Positions 188 to 16,724 are shown, counted from the first letter of the stretch. The stretch is DNA of 64,000 nucleotides from Prevotella sp. (GCA_031285625.1 JAITVV010000071.1:32001-96000), one strand, 5' to 3'. Translations and numbers: made by a program. The notes: generated by a model from the letters alone, not told the origin.

Positions 188-409
188 ATGTACTGGACTT
201 TAGAATTAGCATCAAAATTAGAAGATGCACCATGGCCTGCAACAAAAGAAGAGTTGATTGACTATGCCCAACGTTCGGGTGCACCTCTTGAAGTTATAGA
301 AAACTTACAGGAGATAGAGGATGAAGATGAGATTTTCGATACTATCGAAGACATCTGGCCTGACTATCCTAGTAAAGAAGATTTCTTCTTCAACGAGGAC
401 GAGTATTAG
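188..409 (+). CDS. DUF2795 family small acidic protein; integration target of the island
   Basis: MYWTLELASKLEDAPWPATK...FFFNEDEY, a highly conserved Bacteroidetes protein. Confidence 0.9.
   Translation: MYWTLELASKLEDAPWPATKEELIDYAQRSGAPLEVIENLQEIEDEDEIFDTIEDIWPDYPSKEDFFFNEDEY
386..407 (+). repeat. attL core direct repeat TTCTTCAACGAGGACGAGTATT
   Basis: 21/22 identical to 10413-10434. Confidence 0.92.
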
Positions 410-453
410 AGGTAAAAAATTGTAAAATGCTTTAAAATAAAGCGTATATACAG

Positions 454-492
454 GAGATTAGGGTAACAAATAATTACTTTAATCTCTTTTTT
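454..492 (+). terminator. Element-supplied intrinsic terminator for the DUF2795 gene
   Basis: GAGATTAGGGTAA...TTACTTTAATCTC stem (two G.U pairs) followed by T6; near-copy of the hairpin at 10477-10516. Confidence 0.7.
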
Positions 493-567
493 ATGCCTTT
501 TTTTACTATATTTGTTACCCTAAACGCAACCCTATAAAGGGTAATATTCCTAAAAAAATACATAGTA

Positions 568-1908
568 ATGGGTAGAAAGAAAGCTGACAGACCAACAGGA
601 AAGTTTAAACTTCGTACAGACCAAAGCAAAGACGATGGTAAATATACCTTATATTTAGAATATAGTCTGAATAGAAAATTTGCAAAAACTACCACAGAAT
701 ATAAATTTAAGCCTTCAGAATGGGATGATAAGAATCAAAAAGTAAAAGGAACTGTTCCAAACTATAATCGTATCAATGCTCAATTATCCAAGCTTAAAAA
801 TGGCATTGATGCAGCTATTATTGATTATCTTGATAGAACAAAGGGTAACACAAAGAGAAGGTTAACTATTGACATCTTACGAAGTATTGTCCAGCGAAAA
901 CCAATTACGACATTAGGCAAAGTAGAAAACAACGAATTTTTCGCTATGGCTAATAAAATTCAAGAAGATGAATATTCACATGGAAAAAATTCTTATAGCC
1001 TTTATAAGAATAAGCTAAATCAGATAGATATATTCAAAAAGTTTGTTTCTAAAAAGATAGGTGAGCAATTTATTAATTGTGATGACATTGATATTGACCT
1101 GATAAATGATTATATTAAATGGCGTATAGATAGGGGAAATAAACCTGTTACTATTAATAAAGCTCTCGTCCCAATCAATCAAACTCTAAAAATAGCAAGT
1201 ATTAAAGGCTTTGCTAATGCAGAGATGGCATATTTAATATCAAAATCGTATCTACCTATCAAGACTAAATTGAAAGATGAAGAAGACGAGGAAGATGATG
1301 TAAGATATTTAACAGAGGACCAGATAAAATCGTTATTAGAATTATATCCAAAATTGCATATTAGAACAAAAGATTATATAGATATGTTTCTTTTTGTAAT
1401 TCATACAGGATTACGAGTTTCTGATATAATAACTTTGCGATGGATAAATATTGATATTGAGAAAAAAGAACTGAATAAGATACTATATAAGGGAGACATT
1501 AAACTATCGACACCCCTAACAGCACCAGCTATAAAGATTTTAAATAAATGGAAAGAACGCAATCTAAATGATGTTTTTGTTTTTGACATCCTGCCTTCTG
1601 ATTTTAATTTACAAGACGTTCCATTACTTGACAAAATGCGTATCAATAAAAATCGTTCAATTCTTACATCATTAAATGAAGTCGGTAATAAATTGGAGTT
1701 GGCTTTCAAAATGGGTATGCACGTAGGTAGGCATACATTTGCAGTTTTAGCCTTAAACAGAGAAGTAAACTTGCATATTTTAAGTCAGTTATTGGGACAT
1801 TCAAGTATATTAGTTACAGAAAAAGTGTATGCTAAATTCTTGCCTAAAACAATAAAAGAAGAAGTTGAAACCAAACTCGATTTCAACTTCCTTCCTGATG
1901 GATATTAA
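568..1908 (+). CDS. Site-specific tyrosine integrase (arm-binding + SAM-like + catalytic domains)
   Basis: Catalytic motifs HTGLRVSD, HVGRHTFA, LLGHSS..TEKVYA; Bacteroidetes-type arm-binding N-terminus (EWDDKNQKVK). Confidence 0.95.
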   Translation: MGRKKADRPTGKFKLRTDQSKDDGKYTLYLEYSLNRKFAKTTTEYKFKPSEWDDKNQKVKGTVPNYNRINAQLSKLKNGIDAAIIDYLDRTKGNTKRRLTIDILRSIVQRKPITTLGKVENNEFFAMANKIQEDEYSHGKNSYSLYKNKLNQIDIFKKFVSKKIGEQFINCDDIDIDLINDYIKWRIDRGNKPVTINKALVPINQTLKIASIKGFANAEMAYLISKSYLPIKTKLKDEEDEEDDVRYLTEDQIKSLLELYPKLHIRTKDYIDMFLFVIHTGLRVSDIITLRWINIDIEKKELNKILYKGDIKLSTPLTAPAIKILNKWKERNLNDVFVFDILPSDFNLQDVPLLDKMRINKNRSILTSLNEVGNKLELAFKMGMHVGRHTFAVLALNREVNLHILSQLLGHSSILVTEKVYAKFLPKTIKEEVETKLDFNFLPDGY

Positions 1909-2976: not shown

Positions 2977-3996
2977 ATGAATAGTTATGAAAATAAACAT
3001 TTAAAATTTGATACAGTAAAAATTAGAACAAATAAAGAATATTTAAAAGATACATTTATTAAATTCAATCCAAAATATAAATCAAATGGAGAAATAATAA
3101 ATAAATATTATAATTCAAAAGATGATGATAGACTTATTCCCTATAATTTATATATTGGAATTAGTGATAAATCATTAACATTAGAATTTTCATCTAAGAT
3201 ATTATTAGATGATTATCCGAAGCTTATAACAAAAGATACATTCAAACAATGTTTAGAGAATATCAACCAACTTGATATTTGCGCCCTCAATGCTGATTCT
3301 ATTGCAAATGATTGTTATTTTACGAAAGTTCATGTTACCAATGATATAAAATATCCATTCACTGATAATGTATTAGATAGCCTTAATTCAAATGTCAATG
3401 ATTATAGACGTTACCAATGGGAACATTATCGAAAAGACGGCATACGCTTTAAAAAGGATGTAAAATCAATATCCTGCAAAGAGAGTATTGTTATGTACAA
3501 TAAAGAAAAGGAAATTATAAACAATGTAGATTTTCTTTCAATTCTCAGCAAGCCGAATGAAGTAATTGATTATTTTGATGGGGTCACACGTTTTGAAATG
3601 GAGTTGGATAAACCAAAGAAAATATGTGAAGCTCTGAATATTGATACCACCCATATAAGTAAAGTGTTCAATTCAAAGGAAAACCCCTTACTTGTTCAGT
3701 TTAATAAAATTTTTGGAGTAGGAGAGATTAAAAACAGACAATACATTGCTAACTATGAAACCTACGCTATGGATGCTATAATTGAGAAACACAACGGTGA
3801 CATCAAGAAGATAGAACAGGAAATGAAAGACCTGCATGTTTACAGTTCTAATTCTCGTAATGGCTTATCGGAAAGAATGAAGAAGATTAAAGCTCTTATA
3901 GAACAACGAAACGAGAGATTGTATAATTCCAGAGGAATATTGACAGAAATTAGAGAAAAATTAGGCGAAAAAGCACCTATTCCAGCTCAACTATGA
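2977..3996 (+). CDS. Putative rolling-circle replication initiator (phage/plasmid gene II/X, Rep_trans-like)
   Basis: N-terminal FDTVKI, VHVTND, MYNKEKE and RFEMEL resemble the D..D..YxK..RxE pattern of this superfamily. Confidence 0.6.
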   Translation: MNSYENKHLKFDTVKIRTNKEYLKDTFIKFNPKYKSNGEIINKYYNSKDDDRLIPYNLYIGISDKSLTLEFSSKILLDDYPKLITKDTFKQCLENINQLDICALNADSIANDCYFTKVHVTNDIKYPFTDNVLDSLNSNVNDYRRYQWEHYRKDGIRFKKDVKSISCKESIVMYNKEKEIINNVDFLSILSKPNEVIDYFDGVTRFEMELDKPKKICEALNIDTTHISKVFNSKENPLLVQFNKIFGVGEIKNRQYIANYETYAMDAIIEKHNGDIKKIEQEMKDLHVYSSNSRNGLSERMKKIKALIEQRNERLYNSRGILTEIREKLGEKAPIPAQL

Positions 3997-4145: not shown

Positions 4146-5084
4146 TTATTGTTTATTCCTATCTATTTTATTTAAAATAAACTTTCTGCCTATATTTGTT
4201 TGGTTTGAGCCAGTACCTCTATCATAATAATCATATACCATCTCAATTTTATTTGTTGTCATAGATATTATTTTATAATGGGCTGTAATTTCATCATATG
4301 TAATTTTATTAGATAATTTAAAATAAAATCCATTATTAGTAAAACTTACACTTATACTATGAAATGATATATCAAATTTATCATCGTAATGACTTATCAT
4401 TGAATTATCTATGTATGTTGTGTTAAATCTTAAATAAAATGGATTACTTTCATATTCTTGAAAATTTATAGACCCTTCAAAAAAACCATCTTGTTTACAT
4501 TCCCAAAAAATAGGTCCTTTATCATTAGGGATATGTAATATTTTCGCAATATTTTCCTTATTTATTTGAACAATTTCGGGCACTTCTATTTCGGGAGTTT
4601 CAGGTAGTGTAATTTCACCTTTATACTCGTATTCGTTTTTAAAGTTAAGTGTAAGTGCATTCAGGTTATCATTGTACATATTTTTAATCTTCGCATCATC
4701 AGTAAATGATTCACTTTTGACAATAGTATTGTTATTCAATAGATTAAAAGTAACCTTTGTAGCATATTTGATATAAGTGTAATATACATCGTTAATAGGT
4801 ATTGTTGTACCCTCATCTATATTTGCTTCAATGACGACTTGTACATTATCATTGAACAGCAAGTTAAGATAGGTTGTAACAAAAGTGCTTTTTAGTTGTG
4901 ATTTAGCAATGATAGCCGATTCAACTTTAAGGTCTTTGTTGTTGAAGTTTACGCCATTGTTTGAGATTGCGCCAGTTGTTGTAGGTACAATCGGGTTTGG
5001 GTCAGTATCGTTGTTGTCATCGCTACTACAAGAATAGAATAAGGTCGTTGCCATCAGACACAATGTGAATAATAGTTTTTTCAT
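4146..5084 (-). CDS. Lipoprotein of unknown function (element cargo)
   Basis: Signal peptide II MKKLLFTLCLMATTLFYSC followed by SSDDNND acidic export-type signal. Confidence 0.8.
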   Translation of the reverse strand: MKKLLFTLCLMATTLFYSCSSDDNNDTDPNPIVPTTTGAISNNGVNFNNKDLKVESAIIAKSQLKSTFVTTYLNLLFNDNVQVVIEANIDEGTTIPINDVYYTYIKYATKVTFNLLNNNTIVKSESFTDDAKIKNMYNDNLNALTLNFKNEYEYKGEITLPETPEIEVPEIVQINKENIAKILHIPNDKGPIFWECKQDGFFEGSINFQEYESNPFYLRFNTTYIDNSMISHYDDKFDISFHSISVSFTNNGFYFKLSNKITYDEITAHYKIISMTTNKIEMVYDYYDRGTGSNQTNIGRKFILNKIDRNKQ

Positions 5085-5275
5085 TCTCTGACCTCCTCTC
5101 TAATTGCGTCTTTTACACTTTTTTCAAGTGTTTCTAAATCGTAGTTAGAATCTACAATAGAACCATTCTTTACAACTTGATATAAGTTTTCACACTTATA
5201 GATGTCTGCAAATTTTTCTTTTTTGATAAAAAAAGTTTTTACCAAAATACCAGAGAATACATTTTTGTTCATCAT
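5081..5275 (-). CDS. Small hypothetical protein, ATGA-coupled to the lipoprotein gene
   Basis: 64-aa ORF whose stop overlaps the lipoprotein start by 4 nt. Confidence 0.55.
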   Translation of the reverse strand: MMNKNVFSGILVKTFFIKKEKFADIYKCENLYQVVKNGSIVDSNYDLETLEKSVKDAIREEVRE

Positions 5276-5730: not shown

Positions 5731-6411
5731 ATGGAAGCTAAAAAATATACTTGTTATTATAGAGTGTCTACAAAAAAACAAGGCAAATCAGGATTAGGTC
5801 TTGATGCACAAGAAACAATCTGTAAAAACTACGTAGATGGTCAGAAAGGTATAATCATAAATTCTTTCGTTGAAGTTGAAAGTGGTAAAAATGATAACAG
5901 GGAAAAACTGCATACTGCTATTGCTGAATGTAAGCAAACTAACAGTACTCTGTTAATTGCCAAACTTGATAGGTTATCGAGAAGTGTTGAATTTATTTTT
6001 AGTTTGAAAAATTCAGGTATTAATTTTACTTGTGTTGACCTACCTGAACTCAATACCATGACCTTGGGTATCTTTGCAACCTTTGCACAGAGCGAAAGAG
6101 AGCGTATAAGTGAGAGAATCACAAATGCACTCGCTGAAAAGAAAAAAAAGGGTATTAAACTTGGTAAACCTGAAAACTTACTGAACAACTTTGATAAAGC
6201 ATACAGTAATAGTTTAGCTACTCGACAAGGCAATGCAGTAAACAATGAGAACAACAAAAAAGCAGGTCTTTTGATTGTGTCTTTGCGTGATGGTGGTAAA
6301 ACATGGAATGAGATAACCCAAACTTTAAATGATAATGGTTTTAAAACTCGCAGGGGTGGTGTGTTTGGTATAACTCAGGTGGTGAGGCTGTTCAATAGAT
6401 ATTACTCATAA
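5731..6411 (+). CDS. Serine recombinase (resolvase/invertase family) with C-terminal recombinase-type HTH
   Basis: YYRVSTKKQ catalytic Ser motif, ESGK, AKLDRLSR, ERERISERI. Confidence 0.93.
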   Translation: MEAKKYTCYYRVSTKKQGKSGLGLDAQETICKNYVDGQKGIIINSFVEVESGKNDNREKLHTAIAECKQTNSTLLIAKLDRLSRSVEFIFSLKNSGINFTCVDLPELNTMTLGIFATFAQSERERISERITNALAEKKKKGIKLGKPENLLNNFDKAYSNSLATRQGNAVNNENNKKAGLLIVSLRDGGKTWNEITQTLNDNGFKTRRGGVFGITQVVRLFNRYYS

Positions 6412-6520
6412 ATTATTGACATATAAAACATTAAGTTTTATCAGATTGTTTATCTATAAGAGAAAAAGAAGCAGATAATCGCATGATTATTGATTAATAA
6501 TTGTATTTTTGCTAAGGAAT

Positions 6521-9500
6521 ATGAAACAAAATGTGTCGCTAAACAAGTTTCTGATTCAGTTAGGATTAGAAAAGGTGGTCTTCTTTAAGGACGAAGAAGG
6601 AGTATACTCCTCTGTTCTACACTTTGACATACAGAATAAACTCAAACTAATCAGTCCTGACGCAATCTATATATTCAATAATCAACCTTTAATTTTATTT
6701 TTCGATTTAACTGATAATACAGACGATAAACGAGAGGATGATATTCACAAAAAAGTATGGTCTTTTGATAATTCTCCGATAGCTTTTATTATAAAAAGTA
6801 ATGAAATAAAAGTATACAATGCACTGAATTATATAAAGAACGAGAATCGCTTAGAAACGATTAACTTAACAAGTGATGAAATCATTAATAAATTCTCTTT
6901 TTGGAATTTACAAAGCAGCAATGTTTGGAATTGGTTTCAAGAAAAATATATTGAAACCATACAAAAAAAGGAAACTAAAAAACGTGTAAACGAAAGGCTT
7001 TTTCAGAATATCAGAGATGTGAGAAATGCTTTGATAGATAAGAACAATGACCCTGAGGGAAGTATTCCAAACTCTCTTATTCTTAGATTGATATTTATAA
7101 GATACTTAATAGATAGAAATATTGAAATTGGTTCAGAGTTTATTGATGGGTGTGATACTTATTCAAGAAGATTAAGTTTCAGTAAACTATTACAAGACCC
7201 TGACAAGCTATCTCGGTTATTTGTAAAATTAAATGATAGATTTAACGGTGTTCTATTCAAAGGTGTTGATATAAAGCTAACTACTACACAAGCTGAAAGT
7301 CTATCTGATATCTTCAATGGTGAAGTACCAAAGAAAAACTCATTATTTTATGGCAGTGATTTCTATTTTGAGATATTTGATTTTTCTATAATTCCTGTTG
7401 AAGTAATTTCAGGAATATATGAATCTTTGATTGACCCTGAAACAAGAAATCTACAATCAGCAGTATATACCCCATCTTTTTTAGTTGAATATATTTTAAA
7501 TGATACTATTGATGTTTTCCTAAATGAGAACAATACATCGGAGTGTAAAATATTCGAAGTTGCTGTTGGCTCAGGAATTTTCCTTGTTCAGTCTTTGAGA
7601 AGAATGATAGAAAAGGAAATTGAATTAAAAGGAAATTTAGACAAAGAAGCTTTTAGTGAACGTATTAGAGACATAGCAAAACAAAATTTATACGGTGTTG
7701 ACATCAATAAGGAAGCATTAAAAGTAACATGTTTTTCAATATATATTGCTCTATTAGATTATCAAGAACCTAAAAATATCTATAAATATAAATTTCCTAA
7801 TCTATTGGGAGAAAACTTATTTGAAGCTAATTTTTTTGACACAAAGAATGAGTTTAATCAAGTAATAAATAATGCAAGACCCCAATATATATTGGGTAAT
7901 CCACCTTGGAAAAGTAATAAAGATGATTACCATATAGAATGGTTAAAGTCTAATAAAAAGACTGTTGGAAGATTTGAAATTGCACAATCCTTTCTTCTGA
8001 GGACAAAAGATTTTATGAATCTCGATACCAAAGTTGCATTAATTATTACGAGTACCATTTTCTATAATGTGTCTAAAACAACAAGAGCATTCAAGAATGA
8101 ATTTTTATCAACATACTGTATTAGTAAATTCTTTGACTTGTCCCCTGTCAGACGATTAATATTTGAAGAAAAAGATAGTCCTGCAAGCGTTGTATATTAT
8201 AAATTATCTGAGAATAATGATTACATTAATAATGTAATAGACCATCAATCTGTTAAAATCAACTATTTTCTTAAACACTTTAAAATGTTGGTCATTGAAA
8301 AGTATGACAAAAAAAAGATTTTCCAACGATATTTTATTGAATATGATTGGATGTTTAAAGTTGCTTTATATGGTAATACCTTAGATTTTGTAACCATTAA
8401 TAAAATAGTCGAAAATAAATCAAAAATTAATGATTACATTGATAATAAAACAATATTTAGTGGTGATGGTATCCTAAAAGGAACACCCAAGCCAACCCCT
8501 TTCTCTTTTCTTATTAATTTACCTATTATAGAAAACGAAGAGGTTAAGTCGTATTATACGAATGTCAATATTGAAAAAACAATGACATTAGATGATACAT
8601 ATTTGGAAAGTGGACGAAAATTAGAATTATTTAAGGGAGAACACATATATTTAAAAAGTCAGACTTTAAATGAATCTGATATTGTAGTTTCCTATAATAA
8701 TCAAACCGCCGTTAATCGACATGATGTGATTACGATAACGTCTGAAAATGAAATTGACAAACTGAAAGAAATTTACGCTTTGCTAATCTCAGATATTCAT
8801 ACCTATTATCAATTCCTAACATCTTCTGCATGGGGAGTTTCAACAAGACCTGCAATAAGATTAAAAGAATATAAAAACTTCCCTTGTGTCACATTAAGCA
8901 CACAACATCAGCAAAAGTTAACATCACTAATAAATGATTTTTTTGAAAATTTCATACTCTACTATAGCGATGAGATAAGGTCTGAAACTCTTCCTGTAAA
9001 TAAGAATATATTAAAGAACATAAATAAACTTATTAATGAATTATACAGGATAAATGAAGCTGAAAAGGACTTGATTAATTATGTTCTAAATGTATCGAGA
9101 TATCAATTTCAAGAAAGTAAGCAAGATTTAATAATAGATTTTACACATACGAATAAGAACGATTATAGAAACAAAGAAACTGTCTTAAAGCAGTATGCAG
9201 AAGTGTTCCTACGAGAGATTGAAGACATATATGATAATGAATATATACAAGCAGAAATATATTCATTACATCATTTTGTTGCGGTAAACTTTGTATTTCA
9301 TTCAGACCCGATTAAGGAGAGAATAATATATCAAAAGAATGCAAATATTATTGAATCATTAGAAAAATTGGGAAATCTAAGTATCTCTCAGATTGCAAGT
9401 GTAACTGACCCTACAAAGAACCTATTTATACAAAAAGATATAAAAGGTTTTGAAGATAATTCATTTTATATAATCAAACCTAATGAATATAAATGTTGGC

Positions 9501-9592
9501 ATCGTGCTATGGCATGGTATGATGTTGCTGAGTTTAAAGCGAAGATTGAAGAAGCTGAGTTAGAATATCTAAACAGTAATGAAGATGAGTGA
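6521..9592 (+). CDS. Large N6-adenine DNA methyltransferase with TRD (Eco57I/Type IIG-like architecture)
   Basis: VYTP, motif I variant FEVAVGSGIFL, YGVDIN, motif IV GNPPW; ATG 6521 preferred because the TTG at 6509 lies within a TATTTTTG promoter box. Confidence 0.9.
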   Translation: MKQNVSLNKFLIQLGLEKVVFFKDEEGVYSSVLHFDIQNKLKLISPDAIYIFNNQPLILFFDLTDNTDDKREDDIHKKVWSFDNSPIAFIIKSNEIKVYNALNYIKNENRLETINLTSDEIINKFSFWNLQSSNVWNWFQEKYIETIQKKETKKRVNERLFQNIRDVRNALIDKNNDPEGSIPNSLILRLIFIRYLIDRNIEIGSEFIDGCDTYSRRLSFSKLLQDPDKLSRLFVKLNDRFNGVLFKGVDIKLTTTQAESLSDIFNGEVPKKNSLFYGSDFYFEIFDFSIIPVEVISGIYESLIDPETRNLQSAVYTPSFLVEYILNDTIDVFLNENNTSECKIFEVAVGSGIFLVQSLRRMIEKEIELKGNLDKEAFSERIRDIAKQNLYGVDINKEALKVTCFSIYIALLDYQEPKNIYKYKFPNLLGENLFEANFFDTKNEFNQVINNARPQYILGNPPWKSNKDDYHIEWLKSNKKTVGRFEIAQSFLLRTKDFMNLDTKVALIITSTIFYNVSKTTRAFKNEFLSTYCISKFFDLSPVRRLIFEEKDSPASVVYYKLSENNDYINNVIDHQSVKINYFLKHFKMLVIEKYDKKKIFQRYFIEYDWMFKVALYGNTLDFVTINKIVENKSKINDYIDNKTIFSGDGILKGTPKPTPFSFLINLPIIENEEVKSYYTNVNIEKTMTLDDTYLESGRKLELFKGEHIYLKSQTLNESDIVVSYNNQTAVNRHDVITITSENEIDKLKEIYALLISDIHTYYQFLTSSAWGVSTRPAIRLKEYKNFPCVTLSTQHQQKLTSLINDFFENFILYYSDEIRSETLPVNKNILKNINKLINELYRINEAEKDLINYVLNVSRYQFQESKQDLIIDFTHTNKNDYRNKETVLKQYAEVFLREIEDIYDNEYIQAEIYSLHHFVAVNFVFHSDPIKERIIYQKNANIIESLEKLGNLSISQIASVTDPTKNLFIQKDIKGFEDNSFYIIKPNEYKCWHRAMAWYDVAEFKAKIEEAELEYLNSNEDE

Positions 9593-10310
9593 AGCTTCAA
9601 ACTTTATTTCTAAGCGTAAACAGCCTCTTTCTCTTAGGCAAAAGAATATCCAAAACATACTTTGGTATATGTTAGAATGTTATAGCATAATCCTAAATGA
9701 AGGAAAAACATACTCATTATCAGATATAAAAAAAAGTAACGTAAAACCTGAAAATTATCTCAGAAATAAATTAGTTGATGAATATTTAAGAAAATATACT
9801 CATCTTTTCAAAGAGAAATTTAAGACTGAATATATATTTTTTGATAAAGACACAGAGGAAACATATATTGATGAAAAAGGTAGTGAATCTACTGATAAAA
9901 TCGACATTTATATAAGAAATAAAGCTTTACAAGATTATTGGTCAAATAAGCCAAATGTTTACTATGCAGTGGAATGTAAAAGAATAAAGGAGTTGTCGGA
10001 TACTCAGAAATACATAAATGAAGATACTGTTGGCAAGTTCATAGAAAGAAAGCATACTGAATTTAGACAACCTATTGAAGGACAGCTAGCTTTTATTGAA
10101 AATTCAGATATAAGTCCGCTTAATATAGTAGATGACATAAATAAAAAACTTTGTAAGAACACCAATACAGAATCTCTTTTATCATCAATCGAAGTGCATG
10201 AAATGCAAAAATGTTGTTTTATATCTAAACATAATCGCAGTTTTAATATCAAAAGTAAGTTTAGTATCTATCATTTACTATTAGATTATTCAGATATTGT
10301 GATAAATTGA
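9579..10310 (+). CDS. Putative PD-(D/E)xK nuclease coupled to the methyltransferase
   Basis: DKIDIYI...YYAVECKRI motif; 14-nt overlap with MTase gene. Confidence 0.65.
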   Translation: MKMSEASNFISKRKQPLSLRQKNIQNILWYMLECYSIILNEGKTYSLSDIKKSNVKPENYLRNKLVDEYLRKYTHLFKEKFKTEYIFFDKDTEETYIDEKGSESTDKIDIYIRNKALQDYWSNKPNVYYAVECKRIKELSDTQKYINEDTVGKFIERKHTEFRQPIEGQLAFIENSDISPLNIVDDINKKLCKNTNTESLLSSIEVHEMQKCCFISKHNRSFNIKSKFSIYHLLLDYSDIVIN

Positions 10311-10412: not shown

Positions 10413-10436
10413 TTCTTCAACGAGGATGAGTATTGA
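10413..10436 (+). repeat. attR core = displaced original 3' end of DUF2795 gene (FFNEDEY-TGA)
   Basis: TTC TTC AAC GAG GAT GAG TAT TGA. Confidence 0.92.
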
Positions 10437-10470
10437 TATTAGAAGTTTGTAACAGGCTAAAAATTAGTAT

Positions 10471-10516
10471 AAAAAAGAGATTAGGGTAATTAATAAATTA
10501 CCCTAATCTCTTTTTT
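10471..10516. terminator. Bidirectional host terminator (DUF2795 / uvrA)
   Basis: A6-GAGATTAGGGTAATT...AATTACCCTAATCTC-T6 perfect stem. Confidence 0.9.
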
Positions 10517-10523
10517 CAATTCC

Positions 10524-13310
10524 TCAAAGCTTCTCCTTCAAAAAACGTCCGGTATATGATTTCTCACATTTAGCTATTTGCTCGGGAGTACCTTCACAAA
10601 CCACATAGCCACCTTCTTTTCCTCCCTCAGGGCCTATATCTATAATATGATCGGCACATTTGATCACATCCATATTATGCTCTATGATTACAATAGTATG
10701 CCCTCTCTTAATCAATGAATCAAAAGCCTTTAATAATGTTTTTATATCATGGAAGTGTAAGCCGGTAGTAGGCTCATCAAAAATAAACAATGTTGGCTCA
10801 GGTTTTTCATCTACAAGATGGAAAGCCAGTTTTACACGCTGATTCTCTCCTCCTGACAAAGATGATGAAGACTGTCCCAGTTTTACATATCCAAGTCCGA
10901 CATCTTGCAATGGCTTCAAACGTTTCACTATCTTCTTTTCAGTACTGCCCTTTCCTTCTTCAAAGAACTCTATAGCCTGGTCGATAGTCATATCCAAAAC
11001 ATCATAGATACTTGCTCCCCGATATTGTACATCCAGTATATCCTGCTTGAAACGCTTGCCTTTGCAGACCTCGCATTCGAGCAATACATCTGCCATAAAC
11101 TGCATCTCAACGAGTATCTTTCCTTCTCCGGCGCACTCTTCACAGCGTCCGCCTTCTACATTGAATGAAAAATAAGCAGGAGTAAAATGCATCTGCTTAG
11201 CTAAAGGTTGCTCGGCAAATAATTTGCGAATCTCATCATAAGCCTTTATATAAGTAACAGGATTTGACCGCGATGACCGTCCTATTGGATTCTGGTCAAC
11301 CATTTCTATTTCTTTGATCAGGTTGAGATCTCCTGCAATACTATTGTATTGCACAATCTGATCACCTTTCCCTTTGTAATGACGTTCCAGGGCAGTATAG
11401 AATACATCAGTAACAAGAGATGACTTACCTGACCCACTTACTCCCGTAACAACAGTCATCACATTAAGCGGGAACTTTACATCAATATTTTTCAGGTTAT
11501 TCTGTCTTGCTCCTTTTACTTCAATGTAATTATTCCATTTACGGCGAACTTTCGGAATATCTATTTTTTCTTCTCCATTCAGATAACGGACAGTATAACT
11601 TTCTGTATGTTTTTGAAGACCCTTGATATCTCCCTGATAAACGACTTCCCCACCCAGACGTCCGGCTTTAGGACCGATATCGATTATATAATCGGCGGCA
11701 AGGATAATCTCTTCATCATGTTCTACCACAATCACTGTGTTCCCTATCGACTTCAGTTCCTGTAGTACATTGATTAACAAATCCGTATCGCGCGAATGAA
11801 GCCCGATACTGGGTTCATCTAGAATATATAAAGATCCTACAAGGCTGCTACCCAGAGACGTCGCCAGATTGATACGCTGGCTTTCACCTCCCGAAAGAGA
11901 GTTTGACAAACGATTAAGTGTAAGATAACCCAACCCTACGTTTACCAGATACTGTATACGTACATTTATATCAGTCAACAGGCGTTTGGCTATTGCAGCA
12001 TCCGTTTCGTTTAATTCAAGTTTCTGAAAAAATTCCTTCAACTCAGATATTGGCATCAGTACAAGATCTGCAATGGTACTACCCCCTACCCTAACATATA
12101 ATGCCTGCGGTTTCAGGCGGGAACCTTTACAAGCAGGACAGGTAGTTTTACCGCGATAGCGGGCCAACATTACCCTGTACTGTATTTTATACTGATTCTC
12201 TTCTACCATCCTGAAGAAATCATCTATACTATGCAAGCCTCTGGCTCCATGCCACAACAGATCTCTTTCTTTATCCGATAACTCAAAATAAGGACGATGA
12301 ACAGGAAAATCATATTTACCAGCTGCATGAATAAAATCACGCTTCCATTCGCTCATCTTTTCACCCTTCCAGCACACGACAGCATCCTCATATACCGAAA
12401 GGCTTTTGTTAGGAACAACCAAGTCTTCATCGATTCCCATTACACGTCCAAATCCTTCACAAACAGGACAAGCGCCTACAGGGCTATTAAAGCTGAACAT
12501 AAGATCGGAAGGTTCTTCGAATTGTATACCATCTGCTTCAAAATGTCGTGAAAAATCAAAAGACTCAATTTTATCACCTATATAAAAACGTACAAAACAA
12601 TCTCCCTCTCCTTCAAAGAATGCGGTTTCTATCGACTCCGAAAAGCGACTTATATTGGCGGCATCCTTATCACATGTAAGACGGTCAATCAAAAGGAGCA
12701 TCTCGTCCGGTTTATGCTTTTCTTTAGAAGCAAGAACATCCTCTATCCTTTCAAATTTTCCGAGAATTTCTACACGGGAGAAACCTTCTTTGGAAAGGAT
12801 TTCCAATTGTTCTTCGAGTGTACGGTCGTCCCGGAGAATTATCTTTGTTAGTATTGCCAAACGTGTTTCCTCAGGATAAGAGAGCATTTTCTCAACAATA
12901 TCACTGACCTGATGCTTTTTAACAATCTGACCTGAAACTGGAGAGATAGTTTTACCCACACGGGCAAATAACAGCCGCAAGTATTCGTATATCTCAGTGG
13001 ATGTACCTACGGTAGATCGCGGATTACGCGCACTTACTCGTTGCTCGATCGCAATTGCAGGAGGTATCCCTTTTATATAATCACTTTCGGGTTTGTTCAT
13101 TCTTCCAAGGAACTGACGCGCATAGGAAGACAAGCTCTCCACATAACGGCGCTGACCTTCGGCATATAATGTGTCAAATGCTAAAGAAGACTTTCCCGAA
13201 CCCGATAAACCTGCTATAACAACAAATTTATTGCGAGGTATTTCTACGTCAATATTTTTCAGGTTATTAACCCGTGCTCCCTTTATAAATATATTTTTTT
13301 CCTCTGACAT
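10524..13310 (-). CDS. uvrA: Excinuclease ABC subunit A
   Basis: Two ABC ATPase modules ([17 protein letters not shown]; GVSGSGKSS) and CxxC zinc fingers. Confidence 0.97.
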
Positions 13311-13909: not shown

Positions 13910-14401
13910 ATGTTTATAGATAAATGGTGGGGAAATTATATTGGGGGTTCTGACGATTCTTTTTTATTGTTAGACTATTTCGGCACCAGGAATTCTACAG
14001 TTTTCAATTTAAATGATATTTTACAAGAAACAGGGCTTAGTGATTTATTGATAAGTGGAGGGTTGGAAAACGGCGATCTTTCTTTTCAGGTGAAGGAAGG
14101 ATATGTTCCACACTTCGATATGACGATAGATGTATTGATCGATTTATCCGCAATAGTTATAGAATGTTTACATAATCAGCGTGTTGCAATTAAGGATTTA
14201 GATAATTCATCTAACTATTCAAATACAATATCAATTTCTGCAAAACCAGAGGATCTGATGTTACTAACTAACGGTTTGGATAACTTTATCAAGAATCCTA
14301 AATCATATGAGCTATCTGATATGATGGATGAAGAAAGCCTTTCAGAACTGCTTGCAGATTGTAATGAAGTCTGCGAATCTCTCAGAAAATATATTTTATA
14401 A
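13910..14401 (+). CDS. Imm68-like putative immunity protein
   Basis: N-terminal MFIDKWWGNYIGGSDDS signature; acidic protein. Confidence 0.7.
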   Translation: MFIDKWWGNYIGGSDDSFLLLDYFGTRNSTVFNLNDILQETGLSDLLISGGLENGDLSFQVKEGYVPHFDMTIDVLIDLSAIVIECLHNQRVAIKDLDNSSNYSNTISISAKPEDLMLLTNGLDNFIKNPKSYELSDMMDEESLSELLADCNEVCESLRKYIL

Positions 14402-14416
14402 TGCTGGTATAAAAAG

Positions 14417-15241
14417 ATGCAATACGAATTATTCACACAGTATAAATACAAGTTCTTCAGCCTGGGTAGTGGTAGCAGTGGAAATTGTTATTATCTGGGG
14501 ACTAATGAATACGGTATTCTTATTGATGCCGGTATAGGTATTCGTGCTATTCAGAAGGCATTAAGGGAATATGGTGTGTCTTTCAGCAAAATAATGGCCA
14601 TACTTATTACACACGATCATGCTGACCACATAAAAACTGTTGGTTGTTTAGGTGATAAGTTTAATATTCCAGTGTATACAACAGAGACAGTTCATCAGGG
14701 TATACACAGAAACAGGGCTGTTCGGGCCAGTTTAATTAATTCAAGAAGAATTATAGAAAAAGACATTCCCTTTTCTATTAAAGATTTCGAAATAACAGCT
14801 TTCGAAGTCCCTCACGACAGTATTGATAATGTTGGTTACCGGATCCGGTTTGAAGGTCAAACTTTTGTGCTGGTTACTGATGTCGGTCGTATTACTGACA
14901 AAATAAGAAAATATGCCAGTGAAGCTAATCATTTGGTTATAGAAGCCAATTATGATGAATATATGTTGCAGACAGGCAAATATCCGTATTACTTGAAACA
15001 GCGTATAGTTAATGGAATGGGACATTTGAGCAACCGCTTATCTGCAGAATTTATAGTAAGTATATACAATAAGAACTTACAGAATATATGGCTTTGTCAT
15101 CTCAGTCAGGATAATAATCATCCTGAAATTGCATTTAAAACTGTGGAAAAGGCATTATTTACGAATGGAATAAAAGTGGGTATAAATGTAAGGCTTGAAA
15201 CATTGAGCCGCTATAAAGTATCGGGATTGAGAGAGTTCTGA
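14417..15241 (+). CDS. MBL-fold metallo-hydrolase (YycJ/WalJ-like)
   Basis: LGSGSSGN, THDHADH, VPHD, EANYD, GHLSN, HLSQDNN. Confidence 0.92.
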   Translation: MQYELFTQYKYKFFSLGSGSSGNCYYLGTNEYGILIDAGIGIRAIQKALREYGVSFSKIMAILITHDHADHIKTVGCLGDKFNIPVYTTETVHQGIHRNRAVRASLINSRRIIEKDIPFSIKDFEITAFEVPHDSIDNVGYRIRFEGQTFVLVTDVGRITDKIRKYASEANHLVIEANYDEYMLQTGKYPYYLKQRIVNGMGHLSNRLSAEFIVSIYNKNLQNIWLCHLSQDNNHPEIAFKTVEKALFTNGIKVGINVRLETLSRYKVSGLREF

Positions 15242-15311
15242 ATAAATATTATTCTTATATCAGAATATTTTATATTTTTACTGTATCGATAACTTACAAT
15301 AAACTAATACT

Positions 15312-15668
15312 ATGAATACCTCTTCTCGAAAATGGTTTAACCGCATTTTTAAAGGAGCATCGCTGGCTACAGTGGCAATGGCTTTCCAGGCATGTTATGG
15401 CGCCCCCCGTGATTTTGGTATGGATCAATATATTGATGGGGTTGTATTAAGTGCTGAAGGTGAGCCTTTGCAGGGTGTACTTGTATCTATAGACGATACA
15501 ATACAGCATACTCAAACCGATGCAGAAGGAAAATTTCAATTTTATATTTCCCGCAAAGATGAGTATAAACTATCTTTCTCGGATGATAAAGGAAATAATC
15601 TGAATAAAGATACTACTCTTACAGACCGGCGTGGAGGAATTTATTTAACTATAAATGTAGAAAAATAA
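15312..15668 (+). CDS. Radical SAM-associated lipoprotein with carboxypeptidase-regulatory-like domain
   Basis: Lipobox FQAC followed by YGAP; GVVLSAEGEPLQGVLV..TDAEGKF; abuts rSAM gene. Confidence 0.75.
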   Translation: MNTSSRKWFNRIFKGASLATVAMAFQACYGAPRDFGMDQYIDGVVLSAEGEPLQGVLVSIDDTIQHTQTDAEGKFQFYISRKDEYKLSFSDDKGNNLNKDTTLTDRRGGIYLTINVEK

Positions 15669-16724
15669 ATGTTCTTGGATCGTTTTAAACAATCATTACA
15701 TATAAAGGCAAAAGAGATTGAACACAAGCAACACAATCTCTTTTATCTTTTCTGGGAGTGTACACAGCGCTGTAATCTCTCATGTCTGCACTGTGGTAGT
15801 GATTGCGTATCCGATTCGAAATATAAGGATATGCCAAAAGAGGATTTCTTTAAGGTACTCGATGGTATCAATGAGTATCCCCATGATCATATTACTGTAA
15901 TTGTTACAGGAGGGGAACCTCTGGTAAGGAAAGACCTAGAAGAATGTGGTTTTGAAATACGCAGGCGGGGATTTCGATGGGGAATTGTTACCAATGGATA
16001 TGCTTATACTAAAGAGCGTCATATTTCGCTTCTAAATGCAGGAATGGGTTCTATCACTCTCAGTTTTGATGGGTTGAGTGATACACACAACTGGTTGCGA
16101 AACAATCCTAAAAGCTTCGAAAGGACAGTGAATGCACTTCAACTTATATCTGCCTCTGAACGCTTAACATCGGATGTAGTAACGTGTGTAAACAAGCAGA
16201 ATATTTCTCAGCTCGAAGAAATCTATCAATTGATTCAGCTAAACGGAGGCAAAGCTTGGCGCTTGTTTACCATTACACCTATTGGCAGAGCAAAGAACAA
16301 CGAAGATATGCTGCTCAGTGCGGATGAGTTTACATATCTGATGGAGTTTATCAAGGTGAAAAGAAAATCCGGAGGGATGAATATAAAGTTTAGCTGTGAA
16401 GGATATGTCGGCCGATACGAAGGTGAAGTACGGGAAGGTTATTTCTTTTGCAGGGCAGGTGTTAATGTGGCCTCTGTCTTAATCGATGGGAGTATAGGCG
16501 CTTGTCCGAATATAAACCGCAGCTTTACGCAGGGCAATATCTATAGAGATAACTTTATGGATGTATGGAACAATCGTTATGAACTATATAGAAATCGTAA
16601 CTGGACCAAAACAGGGCAATGCGCTTCATGCAAAGAATATAAGTACTGCAATGGAAATGGTATGCACTACTGGACTGAAAACAAAGACAATGTATTAACC
16701 TGCCATTATAATCTGATAAAATAA
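15669..16724 (+). CDS. Radical SAM/SPASM protein (TIGR04133-like rSAM/lipoprotein system)
   Basis: CNLSCLHC, TGGEPL, SPASM cysteines CRAG..GACP..CASC..YCNGNG..C. Confidence 0.88.
   Translation: MFLDRFKQSLHIKAKEIEHKQHNLFYLFWECTQRCNLSCLHCGSDCVSDSKYKDMPKEDFFKVLDGINEYPHDHITVIVTGGEPLVRKDLEECGFEIRRRGFRWGIVTNGYAYTKERHISLLNAGMGSITLSFDGLSDTHNWLRNNPKSFERTVNALQLISASERLTSDVVTCVNKQNISQLEEIYQLIQLNGGKAWRLFTITPIGRAKNNEDMLLSADEFTYLMEFIKVKRKSGGMNIKFSCEGYVGRYEGEVREGYFFCRAGVNVASVLIDGSIGACPNINRSFTQGNIYRDNFMDVWNNRYELYRNRNWTKTGQCASCKEYKYCNGNGMHYWTENKDNVLTCHYNLIK

Follow-up and report, generated by a model that had tools for sequence, protein, structure and literature searches.

Does a methyltransferase gene that runs into the gene of a small putative nuclease form one restriction system with it, and if so, which of the two proteins would recognize the DNA and which would cut it? 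The question is raised by a gene pair in a 64,000-nucleotide (nt) stretch of DNA from Prevotella sp. (GCA_031285625.1 JAITVV010000071.1:32001-96000), which we call the window and number from its first letter. A preliminary description, made from the sequence alone, had read the pair as an unclassified, split restriction-modification (R-M)-like system, composed of a Type IIG-like methyltransferase with a decayed nuclease domain and a separate PD-(D/E)xK nuclease. Our comparisons of sequences and predicted structures make it probable, though well short of certain, that the two genes constitute a two-subunit, ATP-independent, Type IIG-like R-M module carried as cargo on a ~10-kb integrative island. 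The genes and the parts of them that bear on this reading are listed below, with domain limits taken in part from AlphaFold2 (AF2) models and with lengths in amino acids (aa); TRD stands for target-recognition domain.

6521..9592, plus strand: large subunit, a Type IIG-shaped N6-methyladenine (m6A) methyltransferase-TRD protein (ATG at 6521, TGA at 9590-9592, 1023 aa)
6521..6925, plus strand: N-terminal alpha/beta domain (residues 1-135), in which no catalytic triad is conserved; possibly serves in coupling or as a pseudo-nuclease
6926..7390, plus strand: helical connector domain, residues ~136-290 (AF2 helices at 134-266; the MmeI, BrxX, and Type I HsdM alignments begin at model residues 154-155)
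7391..8200, plus strand: gamma-class N6-adenine methyltransferase domain, residues ~291-560 (Pfam Eco57I, E = 4.8e-16; MmeI_Mtase, E = 4.8e-10; both values unchanged on the TTG-start translation P0001)
7568-7576 and 7898-7909, plus strand, within the large gene: methyltransferase motif I (GSG) and NPPW, respectively
8201..9088, plus strand: target-recognition region, residues ~561-856, most variable at 641-790 (aligns to the TRDs of CamA, M.BseCI, M.TaqI, and MmeI)
9089..9589, plus strand: extra C-terminal domain, residues ~857-1023, highly conserved and outside the MmeI, CamA, and BrxX alignments
9579..10310, plus strand: small subunit, predicted PD-(D/E)xK nuclease (243 aa; 241 aa from the second ATG at 9585)
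9750-9752, 9903-9905, and 9972-9980, plus strand: codons of E58, D109, and E132-C-K134, the putative PD-(D/E)xK site of the small subunit

Both open reading frames (ORFs) are as the preliminary description had them, a 1023-aa large gene and an overlapping 243-aa gene, and the strings it quoted from the large protein were all located (SPDAIYIFNNQPLILFFD at residues 45-62, EVAVGSG at 346-352, GNPPW at 459-463, and IIKPNEYKCWHRAMAWYD at 984-1001). An alternative TTG start at 6509 would give 1027 aa (translation P0001); the ATG is preferred, since a protein on record (P0215) is identical to the 1023-aa product. The 241-aa form of the small protein is likewise on record (P0003). The two genes overlap by 14 nt, or by 8 nt when counted from the ATG at 9585.

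The preliminary description had named co-occurrence of the two genes as a check on its reading, and the pairing proved to be remarkably regular. A search with the small protein found 51 genome loci, and at 47 of these a homologue of the large protein ends at the start of the small gene; three of the remaining four lie at contig ends and one is a partial match. Co-occurrence was also assessed in an even sample of 401 Bacteroidota genomes, where the large-protein search found 19 places in 18 genomes. The small gene is present at all of the ten closest places, and most of the nine distant ones (20-27% identical) have an abutting ORF of ~200-300 aa carrying the same motifs. A profile of the small protein matched 22 places in 19 of the same genomes; 18 of these places coincide with large-protein places, and the other four have a large homologue of 971-1055 aa directly upstream (large-protein A2 profile, E = 1e-60 to 7e-116). 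Thus, all 22 small genes have a large homologue (~970-1120 aa) abutting upstream, and 22 of the 23 large genes have the small gene immediately downstream, the exception (L062) being at a contig end that falls 198 nt after its stop codon. The module is present in 20 of the 401 sampled genomes (~5%), and the pairing persists between large proteins that are 20-27% identical. At the 16 loci tabulated, the two genes either share 1-59 nt or lie no more than 4 nt apart.

As a negative control we used genuine MmeI_N enzymes, which occur in 30 of 301 genomes; only one of these genomes (G239) is also among the 19 with a small gene, where three genomes (G119, G017, and G039) gave an explicit no-match and the absence of the others means that they were not among the matches listed. 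The genes surrounding the pair in the window do not share its distribution: six neighboring genes were tested and each was matched at no more than one of the 51 cassette loci, the window's integrase being matched at only one and its serine recombinase at none. Because these neighbors do not travel with the pair elsewhere, we take the module to be the two genes alone. Together, the genomic comparisons support a strict module that is predicted to be translationally coupled.

Several individual loci deserve mention. At L067 (G083:C1:2189261-2192825) the large gene lies in frames of 616 aa and 362 aa with the small gene still downstream, and this locus is either a broken copy or a genuine three-part form. 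The cassette is also present in three loci from metagenome-assembled genomes (MAGs) of Methanobacteriota (L048-L050), with large and small proteins 32-34% and 28-31% identical to those of the window, identities that point to transfer across domains. In G239 (G239:C2:101303-108398), the two-gene cassette lies ~3 kb from a canonical single-chain MmeI_N enzyme (957-aa frame), encoded by separate neighboring genes, and the locus looks like a small defense island holding both architectures.

If the pair is a restriction system, the small protein is the candidate for its cutting activity. It carries the motifs DKIDI (D106 and D109) and ECK (E132-K134), and the ID..ECK motif that had earlier been called intact-looking is upheld by the family. 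D109, E132, K134, and Y145 are present in 186 of 186 near-full-length homologues (a subset of 213 retrieved) and E58 in 182 of them; the residues invariant in 22 diverse family members are E58, D109, E132, K134, Y145, S216, and H232. An AF2 model with a predicted local distance difference test score (pLDDT) of 84 places D109 in strand 103-114 and the ExK in the adjacent strand 129-136. Restriction endonucleases and related nucleases make up most of the list returned by a VIA structure search (BglII, Z = 7.1; OkrAI, 6.5; Card1, 6.1; BstYI, 6.1; NgoMIV, 5.9; BamHI, 5.7). The protein resembles the BglII/BamHI/BstYI/OkrAI group of Type IIP enzymes in size, in its D...ExK-type site, and in its fold over 141-152 aligned residues, but its identity to them is only ~10%, and no solved structure matched it at the sequence-profile level.

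Searches of Pfam, NCBIfam, PADLOC, PHROGs, and PDB sequences with the small protein itself (P0002) returned nothing significant. Among the 22 diverse members, two match Pfam PDDEXK_9 (best E = 5e-4); PADLOC-DB 2.0.0 assigned no family to P0002 and gave two lone matches among these members, at E = 0.017-0.018. Taken together, the fold list, the PDDEXK_9 matches, and the invariant motif are the reason why we assign the small protein to the PD-(D/E)xK superfamily, and on sequence and model this is clear, with catalysis predicted. The family consists of proteins of ~200-260 aa, all annotated as hypothetical, which form 88 clusters at 90% identity; none of 127 representatives at 50% identity exceeds 259 aa. 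A tblastn search of plasmid and phage collections found no match to the small protein.

The word "split" in the preliminary description fits in the sense of two proteins in a strict module, one with an invariant nuclease motif, the TRD and the nuclease diverging independently as described below. In the sense of gene fission it does not fit. We considered the breakup of a Type IIG enzyme as the origin of the small gene and rejected it: because hhalign found no profile similarity of the small nuclease to MmeI_N or to the N- or C-terminal domain of the large protein, we do not regard the small protein as a detached piece of such an enzyme. HVO_A0006 of Haloferax (PMC4389544), which we examined as a possible parallel, is a fragment of a IIG N-terminal nuclease and represents a different situation.

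The large protein has a well-defined architecture. Its AF2 model, built on a 35-sequence alignment, has a pLDDT of 85 and a predicted template modeling score (pTM) of 0.84, and its best fold matches are CamA (Z = 26.0), BrxX (24.7), MmeI (23.1), DrdV (22.7), and BpuSI (19.0). Model residues ~154 to ~856 superpose on MmeI, BrxX/PglX, DrdV, and Type ISP enzymes, and from residue 290 the model superposes on the monomeric methyltransferases CamA and M.BseCI. Pfam recognizes the methyltransferase part alone, matching MmeI_Mtase in all 35 family members and Eco57I in 30 of them. Fold and Pfam matches thus agree on the Type IIG-like order first proposed, with an NPPW m6A methyltransferase followed by a TRD. 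As in Type IIG enzymes, the methyltransferase is of the gamma class for N6-adenine (motif I xxGxG, motif IV NPPW/Y). All 35 sequences compared share its residues G350, S351, G352, N460, P461, P462, and W463, and the domain looks intact by this measure. The preliminary description had called motif I atypical; EVAVGSG is instead the family consensus, and because its GSG never varies it is no sign of decay. The protein has a single TRD-like region, which aligns to the TRDs of MmeI, CamA, and TaqI and yields a TaqI_C match in 5 of 35 family members.

Beyond the TRD lies an additional domain, which had been noticed at the outset and which the structures bear out, since the MmeI, CamA, and BrxX alignments all stop at model residues 842-875. 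The invariant residues of this C-terminal domain include K986, K991, W993, H994, and D1001 (35-sequence alignment). In an Atlas look-up its nearest Pfam family is DUF7008 (0.87), which is a lead only, and we regard it as a candidate docking or regulatory domain. One large-family member from a metagenome, P0296 (1476 aa), has an N-terminal extension of ~450 aa that resembles a Type I HsdS specificity subunit; this may be gene-calling read-through from a neighboring Type I system or a real fusion.

The N-terminal domain occupies the position of the nuclease in Type IIG enzymes, yet in the sequences compared it has no conserved catalytic site. In the AF2 model, P-D47 opens one predicted strand and D62-L-T64 closes the next, which is, as modeled, the geometry of a PD...(D/E)xK site minus the lysine. 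Within the close clade of 39 relatives, D47 is present in 36 and D62 in 31, and position 64 is T, S, D, K, or N; in the wider superfamily (19 members, 20-69% identical), positions 47, 62, 83, 95, and 97 all vary freely. The preliminary description was therefore right that no ExK follows the PD motif in SPDAIYIFNNQPLILFFD, and no triad is conserved; its term "REase-like" (restriction endonuclease-like) found no support, in that none of 35 large proteins has a nuclease Pfam domain and hhalign gave a probability of 0.7% between MmeI_N and this domain. Genuine MmeI_N domains in the 30 of 301 genomes bear a D...ExK signature (IDLFWKGT-LLVEHKS) that the large-protein family is without, and MmeI_N (PF20464) had no match in genome G000. 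An Atlas language-model look-up places MmeI_N nearest to the N-terminal domain (0.91), again a lead only. The large protein consequently has neither the endonuclease domain that a Type IIG enzyme carries on its methyltransferase chain (no conserved D/E/K triad among 19 superfamily members) nor the MmeI_N domain with D-X8-E-X-K that marks the MmeI family (Type IIL). We also considered D83-X11-E95-x-K97 as a nuclease motif and rejected it: K97 is retained by just 24 of the 39 close relatives, none of the three positions is constant among distant ones, and D83 and E95/K97 lie at opposite ends of a predicted hairpin, as read from the AF2 secondary structure and not from a measured distance.

If the large subunit recognizes the target and the small one cuts, the two proteins need not diverge together. 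Among 39 pairs of proteins, the methyltransferase and C-terminal domains are the best conserved (mean pairwise identities of 0.59 and 0.57, respectively), followed by the N-terminal domain (0.51), with the TRD core (residues 641-790) and the small protein at 0.39 and 0.40. Individual pairs of loci depart strongly from a shared pattern. The large proteins of L025 and L040 are ~0.9 identical, with TRDs at 0.91, and their small proteins are only 0.36 identical; L031 and L041 have TRDs at 0.85 and small proteins at 0.36; L003 and L004 show the reverse, with TRDs at 0.38 and small proteins at 0.68. This decoupling favors, at the level of sequence, recognition by the methyltransferase-TRD subunit with a nuclease acting in trans, and it is the pattern that would be expected if the nuclease has no sequence specificity and touches the terminal domains. 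When overall divergence was removed (four near-identical rows dropped, leaving 35 sequences and 595 pairs), small-protein divergence was positively correlated with that of large-protein residues 61-140 and 881-1020, and for the methyltransferase and TRD the correlation was negative; given the relatedness of the sequences, this covariation is a lead and not a test. A predicted complex of large-protein residues 1-150 and 856-1023 with the small protein scored 0.21 against a mark of 0.32, which counts neither for nor against binding. We also observed that L025 versus L040, L031 versus L041, and L003/L004 versus L042 have large proteins that are 0.84-0.91 identical in most domains and small proteins that are 0.30-0.36 identical, which suggests that nuclease subunits may have been exchanged between lineages by recombination at the gene junction.

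These results lead us to propose the following mechanism. The large subunit would bind its target through the single TRD and methylate adenine in host DNA, and its N-terminal domain would not be a conserved nuclease. Cleavage would fall to the small subunit, a putative BglII/BamHI-fold PD-(D/E)xK nuclease without specificity of its own, which the large subunit would recruit or license on unmethylated sites, probably by means of its N-terminal domain, its C-terminal domain, or both. The methylase-first gene order and the overlapping stop and start would couple synthesis of the nuclease to prior synthesis of the protective subunit, limiting free nuclease. Since no ATPase is involved, the cut would probably fall close to the site or a set distance from it, in the manner of MmeI-type enzymes. 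We infer physical binding, the subunit that sets the cleavage site, the position of the cut, and the role in defense.

How does such a module relate to known systems? The closest in plan are the single-chain Type IIG/IIL enzymes of the MmeI, BpuSI, DrdV, and Eco57I family, which share the order of helical connector, gamma-class NPPW methyltransferase, and single TRD (MmeI over model residues 154-856). The large protein differs from them in lacking a conserved N-terminal PD-ExK and in having an extra conserved C-terminal domain of ~165 aa, and the pair differs in its obligatory separate nuclease gene, which of the 30 MmeI_N genomes only G239 has. A structural likeness also extends to PglX/BrxX of BREX, from the first BrxX helix to the TRD (model residues 155-875 against BrxX 1-937, Z = 24.7). 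BrxX, however, has no N-terminal alpha/beta domain and BREX no dedicated small nuclease, both of which the window pair has; the NCBIfam BREX PglX models scored 35.1 and 16 bits against cutoffs of 400 and 900; and no brx or pgl genes lie near the pair, whose neighbors are the integrase, the resolvase, and unknown ORFs.

The idea of a Type IIG-like system with its endonuclease on another chain has precedents. The passages of Morgan 2009 (PMC2731913) on this point describe a second set of MmeI homologues that lack PD-ExK and always have a helicase and a GIY-YIG protein encoded beside them (YeeA/B/C). Blow 2016 (PMC4752239), in the corresponding sections, uses the name "Type IIG-like" for systems whose endonuclease is a peptide of its own; AchA6III has a PLD nuclease-translocase, and OspHL35III has a translocase and a GIY-YIG nuclease. 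As those sections present them, such systems share with the window pair an MmeI-family methyltransferase/TRD protein without PD-ExK and an endonuclease on an invariably adjacent gene. They also differ: YeeA/DnmA-YeeB-YeeC, OspHL35III, and AchA6III combine a helicase or translocase with a GIY-YIG or PLD nuclease, and the window pair consists of two genes with no ATPase and a small PD-(D/E)xK protein. No helicase or translocase is encoded among the island ORFs, and only the two abutting genes recur elsewhere. In the parts of PMC2909958 that concern them, the heterodimeric Type IIS enzymes BtsI and BsrDI likewise have a large recognition subunit and a small catalytic subunit that is inactive by itself. 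The BtsI large subunit differs from that of the window in having its own active nuclease site and no methyltransferase.

Our literature searches for this exact two-gene architecture found only related split systems, although the S3 Table of Blow 2016 (76 Type IIG-like systems) and REBASE, which lay outside the search, may list members. The large gene is not without a class, moreover: PADLOC's REase_MTase_IIG model PDLC03603 spans the protein end to end (E = 4e-127, P0001 residues 47-1013 against profile positions 44-1009 of 1016). The terms "unclassified" and "undescribed" were thus too broad. A known model labels the large gene Type IIG and the split concept is in print in the cited passages of Morgan 2009 and Blow 2016, while the small gene has no PADLOC model. 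To the extent that those publications describe their examples, the principle is already in print; the variant seen here, a two-gene system that has no ATPase but does have a small PD-(D/E)xK subunit and, on the large protein, an additional C-terminal domain, is absent from the published examples compared.

The PADLOC match bears directly on the interpretation of the pair. If a seed member of PDLC03603, which is named as a fused REase-methyltransferase, cuts as a single chain, then the small subunit would be accessory and not essential to the proposed R-M module. Other points weigh against our reading as well. The small protein matches known folds at a middling level (best Z, 7.1; top Foldseek match NucC at E = 0.013, which is not significant), and its nearest folds are homodimeric, sequence-specific Type IIP enzymes. 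A search for longer proteins found no fusion of large and small proteins, which is weak evidence. The window's large protein has both D83...E95-I-K97 and P-D47...D62-x-T64, with D47, D83, and E/D95 each kept in 36 of 39 close-clade members, so that the large subunit may have residual nuclease activity in this clade, perhaps through an unconventional site. One alternative view is of the large protein as an active single-chain Type IIG enzyme and of the small one as an accessory nuclease for the other strand, in the manner of BtsI and BsrDI. Such an arrangement would suit the end-to-end PADLOC match, the retention of most of P46-D47, D62, H76-K77, and D83 in the close clade, and the BtsI precedent of a small catalytic subunit inactive alone, as sketched in PMC2909958. 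We consider it distinctly unlikely, however, given that none of these residues is kept in superfamily members 20-36% identical, all of which retain the small partner, and that the large protein has no ExK, no similarity to MmeI_N, and, in the model, D83 and E95/K97 at opposite ends of a hairpin.

A different objection starts from the folds of the small protein. BglII, OkrAI, BstYI, BamHI, and NgoMIV are the neighbors to be expected of a BglII/BamHI-like Type IIP endonuclease that works independently, as a sequence-specific homodimer, with the large protein as a cognate methyltransferase that reads the same site separately, in an ordinary Type II R-M pair that forms no complex. The methyltransferase-TRD part does superpose best on the monomeric Type II methyltransferases CamA, M.BseCI, and M.TaqI, and M.BseCI and M.TaqI act on palindromes. 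Two proteins obliged to keep the same specificity are nevertheless hard to square with the independent divergence of TRD and small protein at L025/L040 and L003/L004. The small family also shares the noncatalytic residues Y145, S216, H218, and H232 across partners that are 20-27% identical, and ~290 N-terminal and ~165 C-terminal residues would be superfluous in a stand-alone methyltransferase, both regions covarying with the small protein; an ordinary Type II pair therefore strikes us as unlikely. There is, finally, a very small chance that the pair has a role other than restriction, as an epigenetic or addiction module with a postsegregational toxin nuclease, as a nuclease acting on methylated or altered DNA, or in abortive infection. 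In favor of such a role, the module is self-contained and mobile, and the YeeA/DnmA operon, an MmeI homologue with separate partners, did not restrict plasmid transformation in B. subtilis in the experiments of Nye 2020 that bear on this (PMC7261158). Methylase-first order, translational coupling, and a variable TRD are on the other hand the classic signature of R-M, and, because addiction is a known property of ordinary R-M systems, the addiction variant overlaps with the R-M module that we propose.

Where, then, does the pair reside in the Prevotella sp. genome? The preliminary description had placed it in the cargo slot of a mobile element, and a tyrosine integrase, a serine recombinase, flanking direct repeats, and low GC content agree with this. 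The relevant features are the following.

386..493, no strand: left copy of an att-like imperfect direct repeat bounding the ~10-kb island (repeat families D1, D3, and D8; spacing ~10,025 nt)
568..1908, plus strand: tyrosine integrase of the island, outside the R-M module (Pfam Phage_integrase, E = 1.3e-19; Arm-DNA-bind_5; Phage_int_SAM_5)
5731..6411, plus strand: serine recombinase (resolvase), directly upstream of the pair and outside the module (Pfam Resolvase, E = 1.3e-24)
6504..6511, plus strand: possible Bacteroidota -7 promoter box, TATTTTTG, 9 nt before the ATG of the large gene (pattern match)
10413..10516, no strand: right copy of the direct repeat of the island (GC content climbs from ~0.27 to ~0.40 just past it)

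The two repeats are ~105 nt each and ~80% identical by pairwise alignment. The left copy takes in a stem-loop and the last codons of ORF 188-409, as would be expected if the element inserts at the 3' end of a gene. The pair sits in a low-GC stretch, with a GC content of 0.25-0.34 inside as opposed to ~0.40 from 10.5 kb onward. An empty-site comparison found the flanks ~200 kb apart and in opposite orientation in a genome of the same genus (G127) and on different contigs in another genome (G299). In a Prevotella sp. MAG, a fragment just upstream of the cassette (L005:2169-2807) is 88% identical to residues 1-213 of the window's integrase, and there the cassette may be carried by the same element family.

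The island encodes no further parts of a known R-M or defense system. Among its ORFs, Pfam and PADLOC searches found no HsdR, HsdS, helicase, translocase, BREX, or DISARM gene, in agreement with the earlier description, and Pfam found no second methyltransferase or S gene nearby. The pair had also been credited with its own promoter box. One TATTTTTG is indeed present at 6504-6511, matching TAnnTTTG, which we take to be the Bacteroidota -7 promoter consensus; since the window contains 107 copies of the motif, only a weak enrichment over the 85 +/- 8 expected, this single site is not beyond chance. A sigma-70 promoter scan gave 41 sites against 32.5 +/- 7 expected, from a model that is unsuited to Bacteroidota.

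Four island ORFs are unassigned (2584-2769 and 2977-3996 on the plus strand; 4146-5084 and 5081-5275 on the minus strand). A 61-aa island ORF has weak PHROG matches to homing endonucleases (7e-5), and a 339-aa island ORF has weak matches to a replication protein (0.0018) and to the PADLOC candidate PDC-M40C (0.0012). Just outside the right repeat, a convergent gene (10524-13310, minus strand) encodes a 928-aa UvrA-type ABC ATPase (Pfam UvrA_inter and UvrA_DNA-bind). This protein matches PADLOC "mad3" of the MADS system at E = 1e-84, in its C-terminal ABC half only; because the gene is kept at 75% nucleotide identity in a genome of the same genus, the match is probably generic ABC-ATPase similarity. 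Farther beyond the island (13910-16724, plus strand) is a row of genes for an Imm68 immunity-protein homologue (1.4e-32), a metallo-beta-lactamase-fold protein, and a radical SAM/SPASM enzyme.

What would the proposed module mean beyond this locus? At least 1492 protein clusters match the large protein. In its boldest form, our reading has the pair define a widespread, helicase-free class of two-subunit restriction enzymes with a catalytically dead N-terminal domain in the nuclease position, a C-terminal docking domain, and a universal, nonspecific BglII-fold nuclease that is swappable between lineages, a generalization that we advance tentatively and to which we give slightly less than even credence. 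If our reading of the pair is right, a sizeable family may have been misdescribed: its large genes carry the annotation "Eco57I methylase domain protein" or enter the counts of single-gene Type IIG systems, the real cutting subunit is at present an unnamed hypothetical protein, and censuses of defense systems would misjudge the gene content of these loci. Such "Type IIG" enzymes, when expressed alone, would methylate DNA but not cleave it. For enzymology, a small generic nuclease guided by an interchangeable methylase that carries the TRD would be a simple way to new cleavage specificities, and, were specificity set by the TRD alone, these loci, scored today as single-gene Type IIG, would constitute a naturally modular and retargetable restriction platform. 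The family would then also provide a helicase-free evolutionary link among Type I, Type IIG, and BREX-type methylases.

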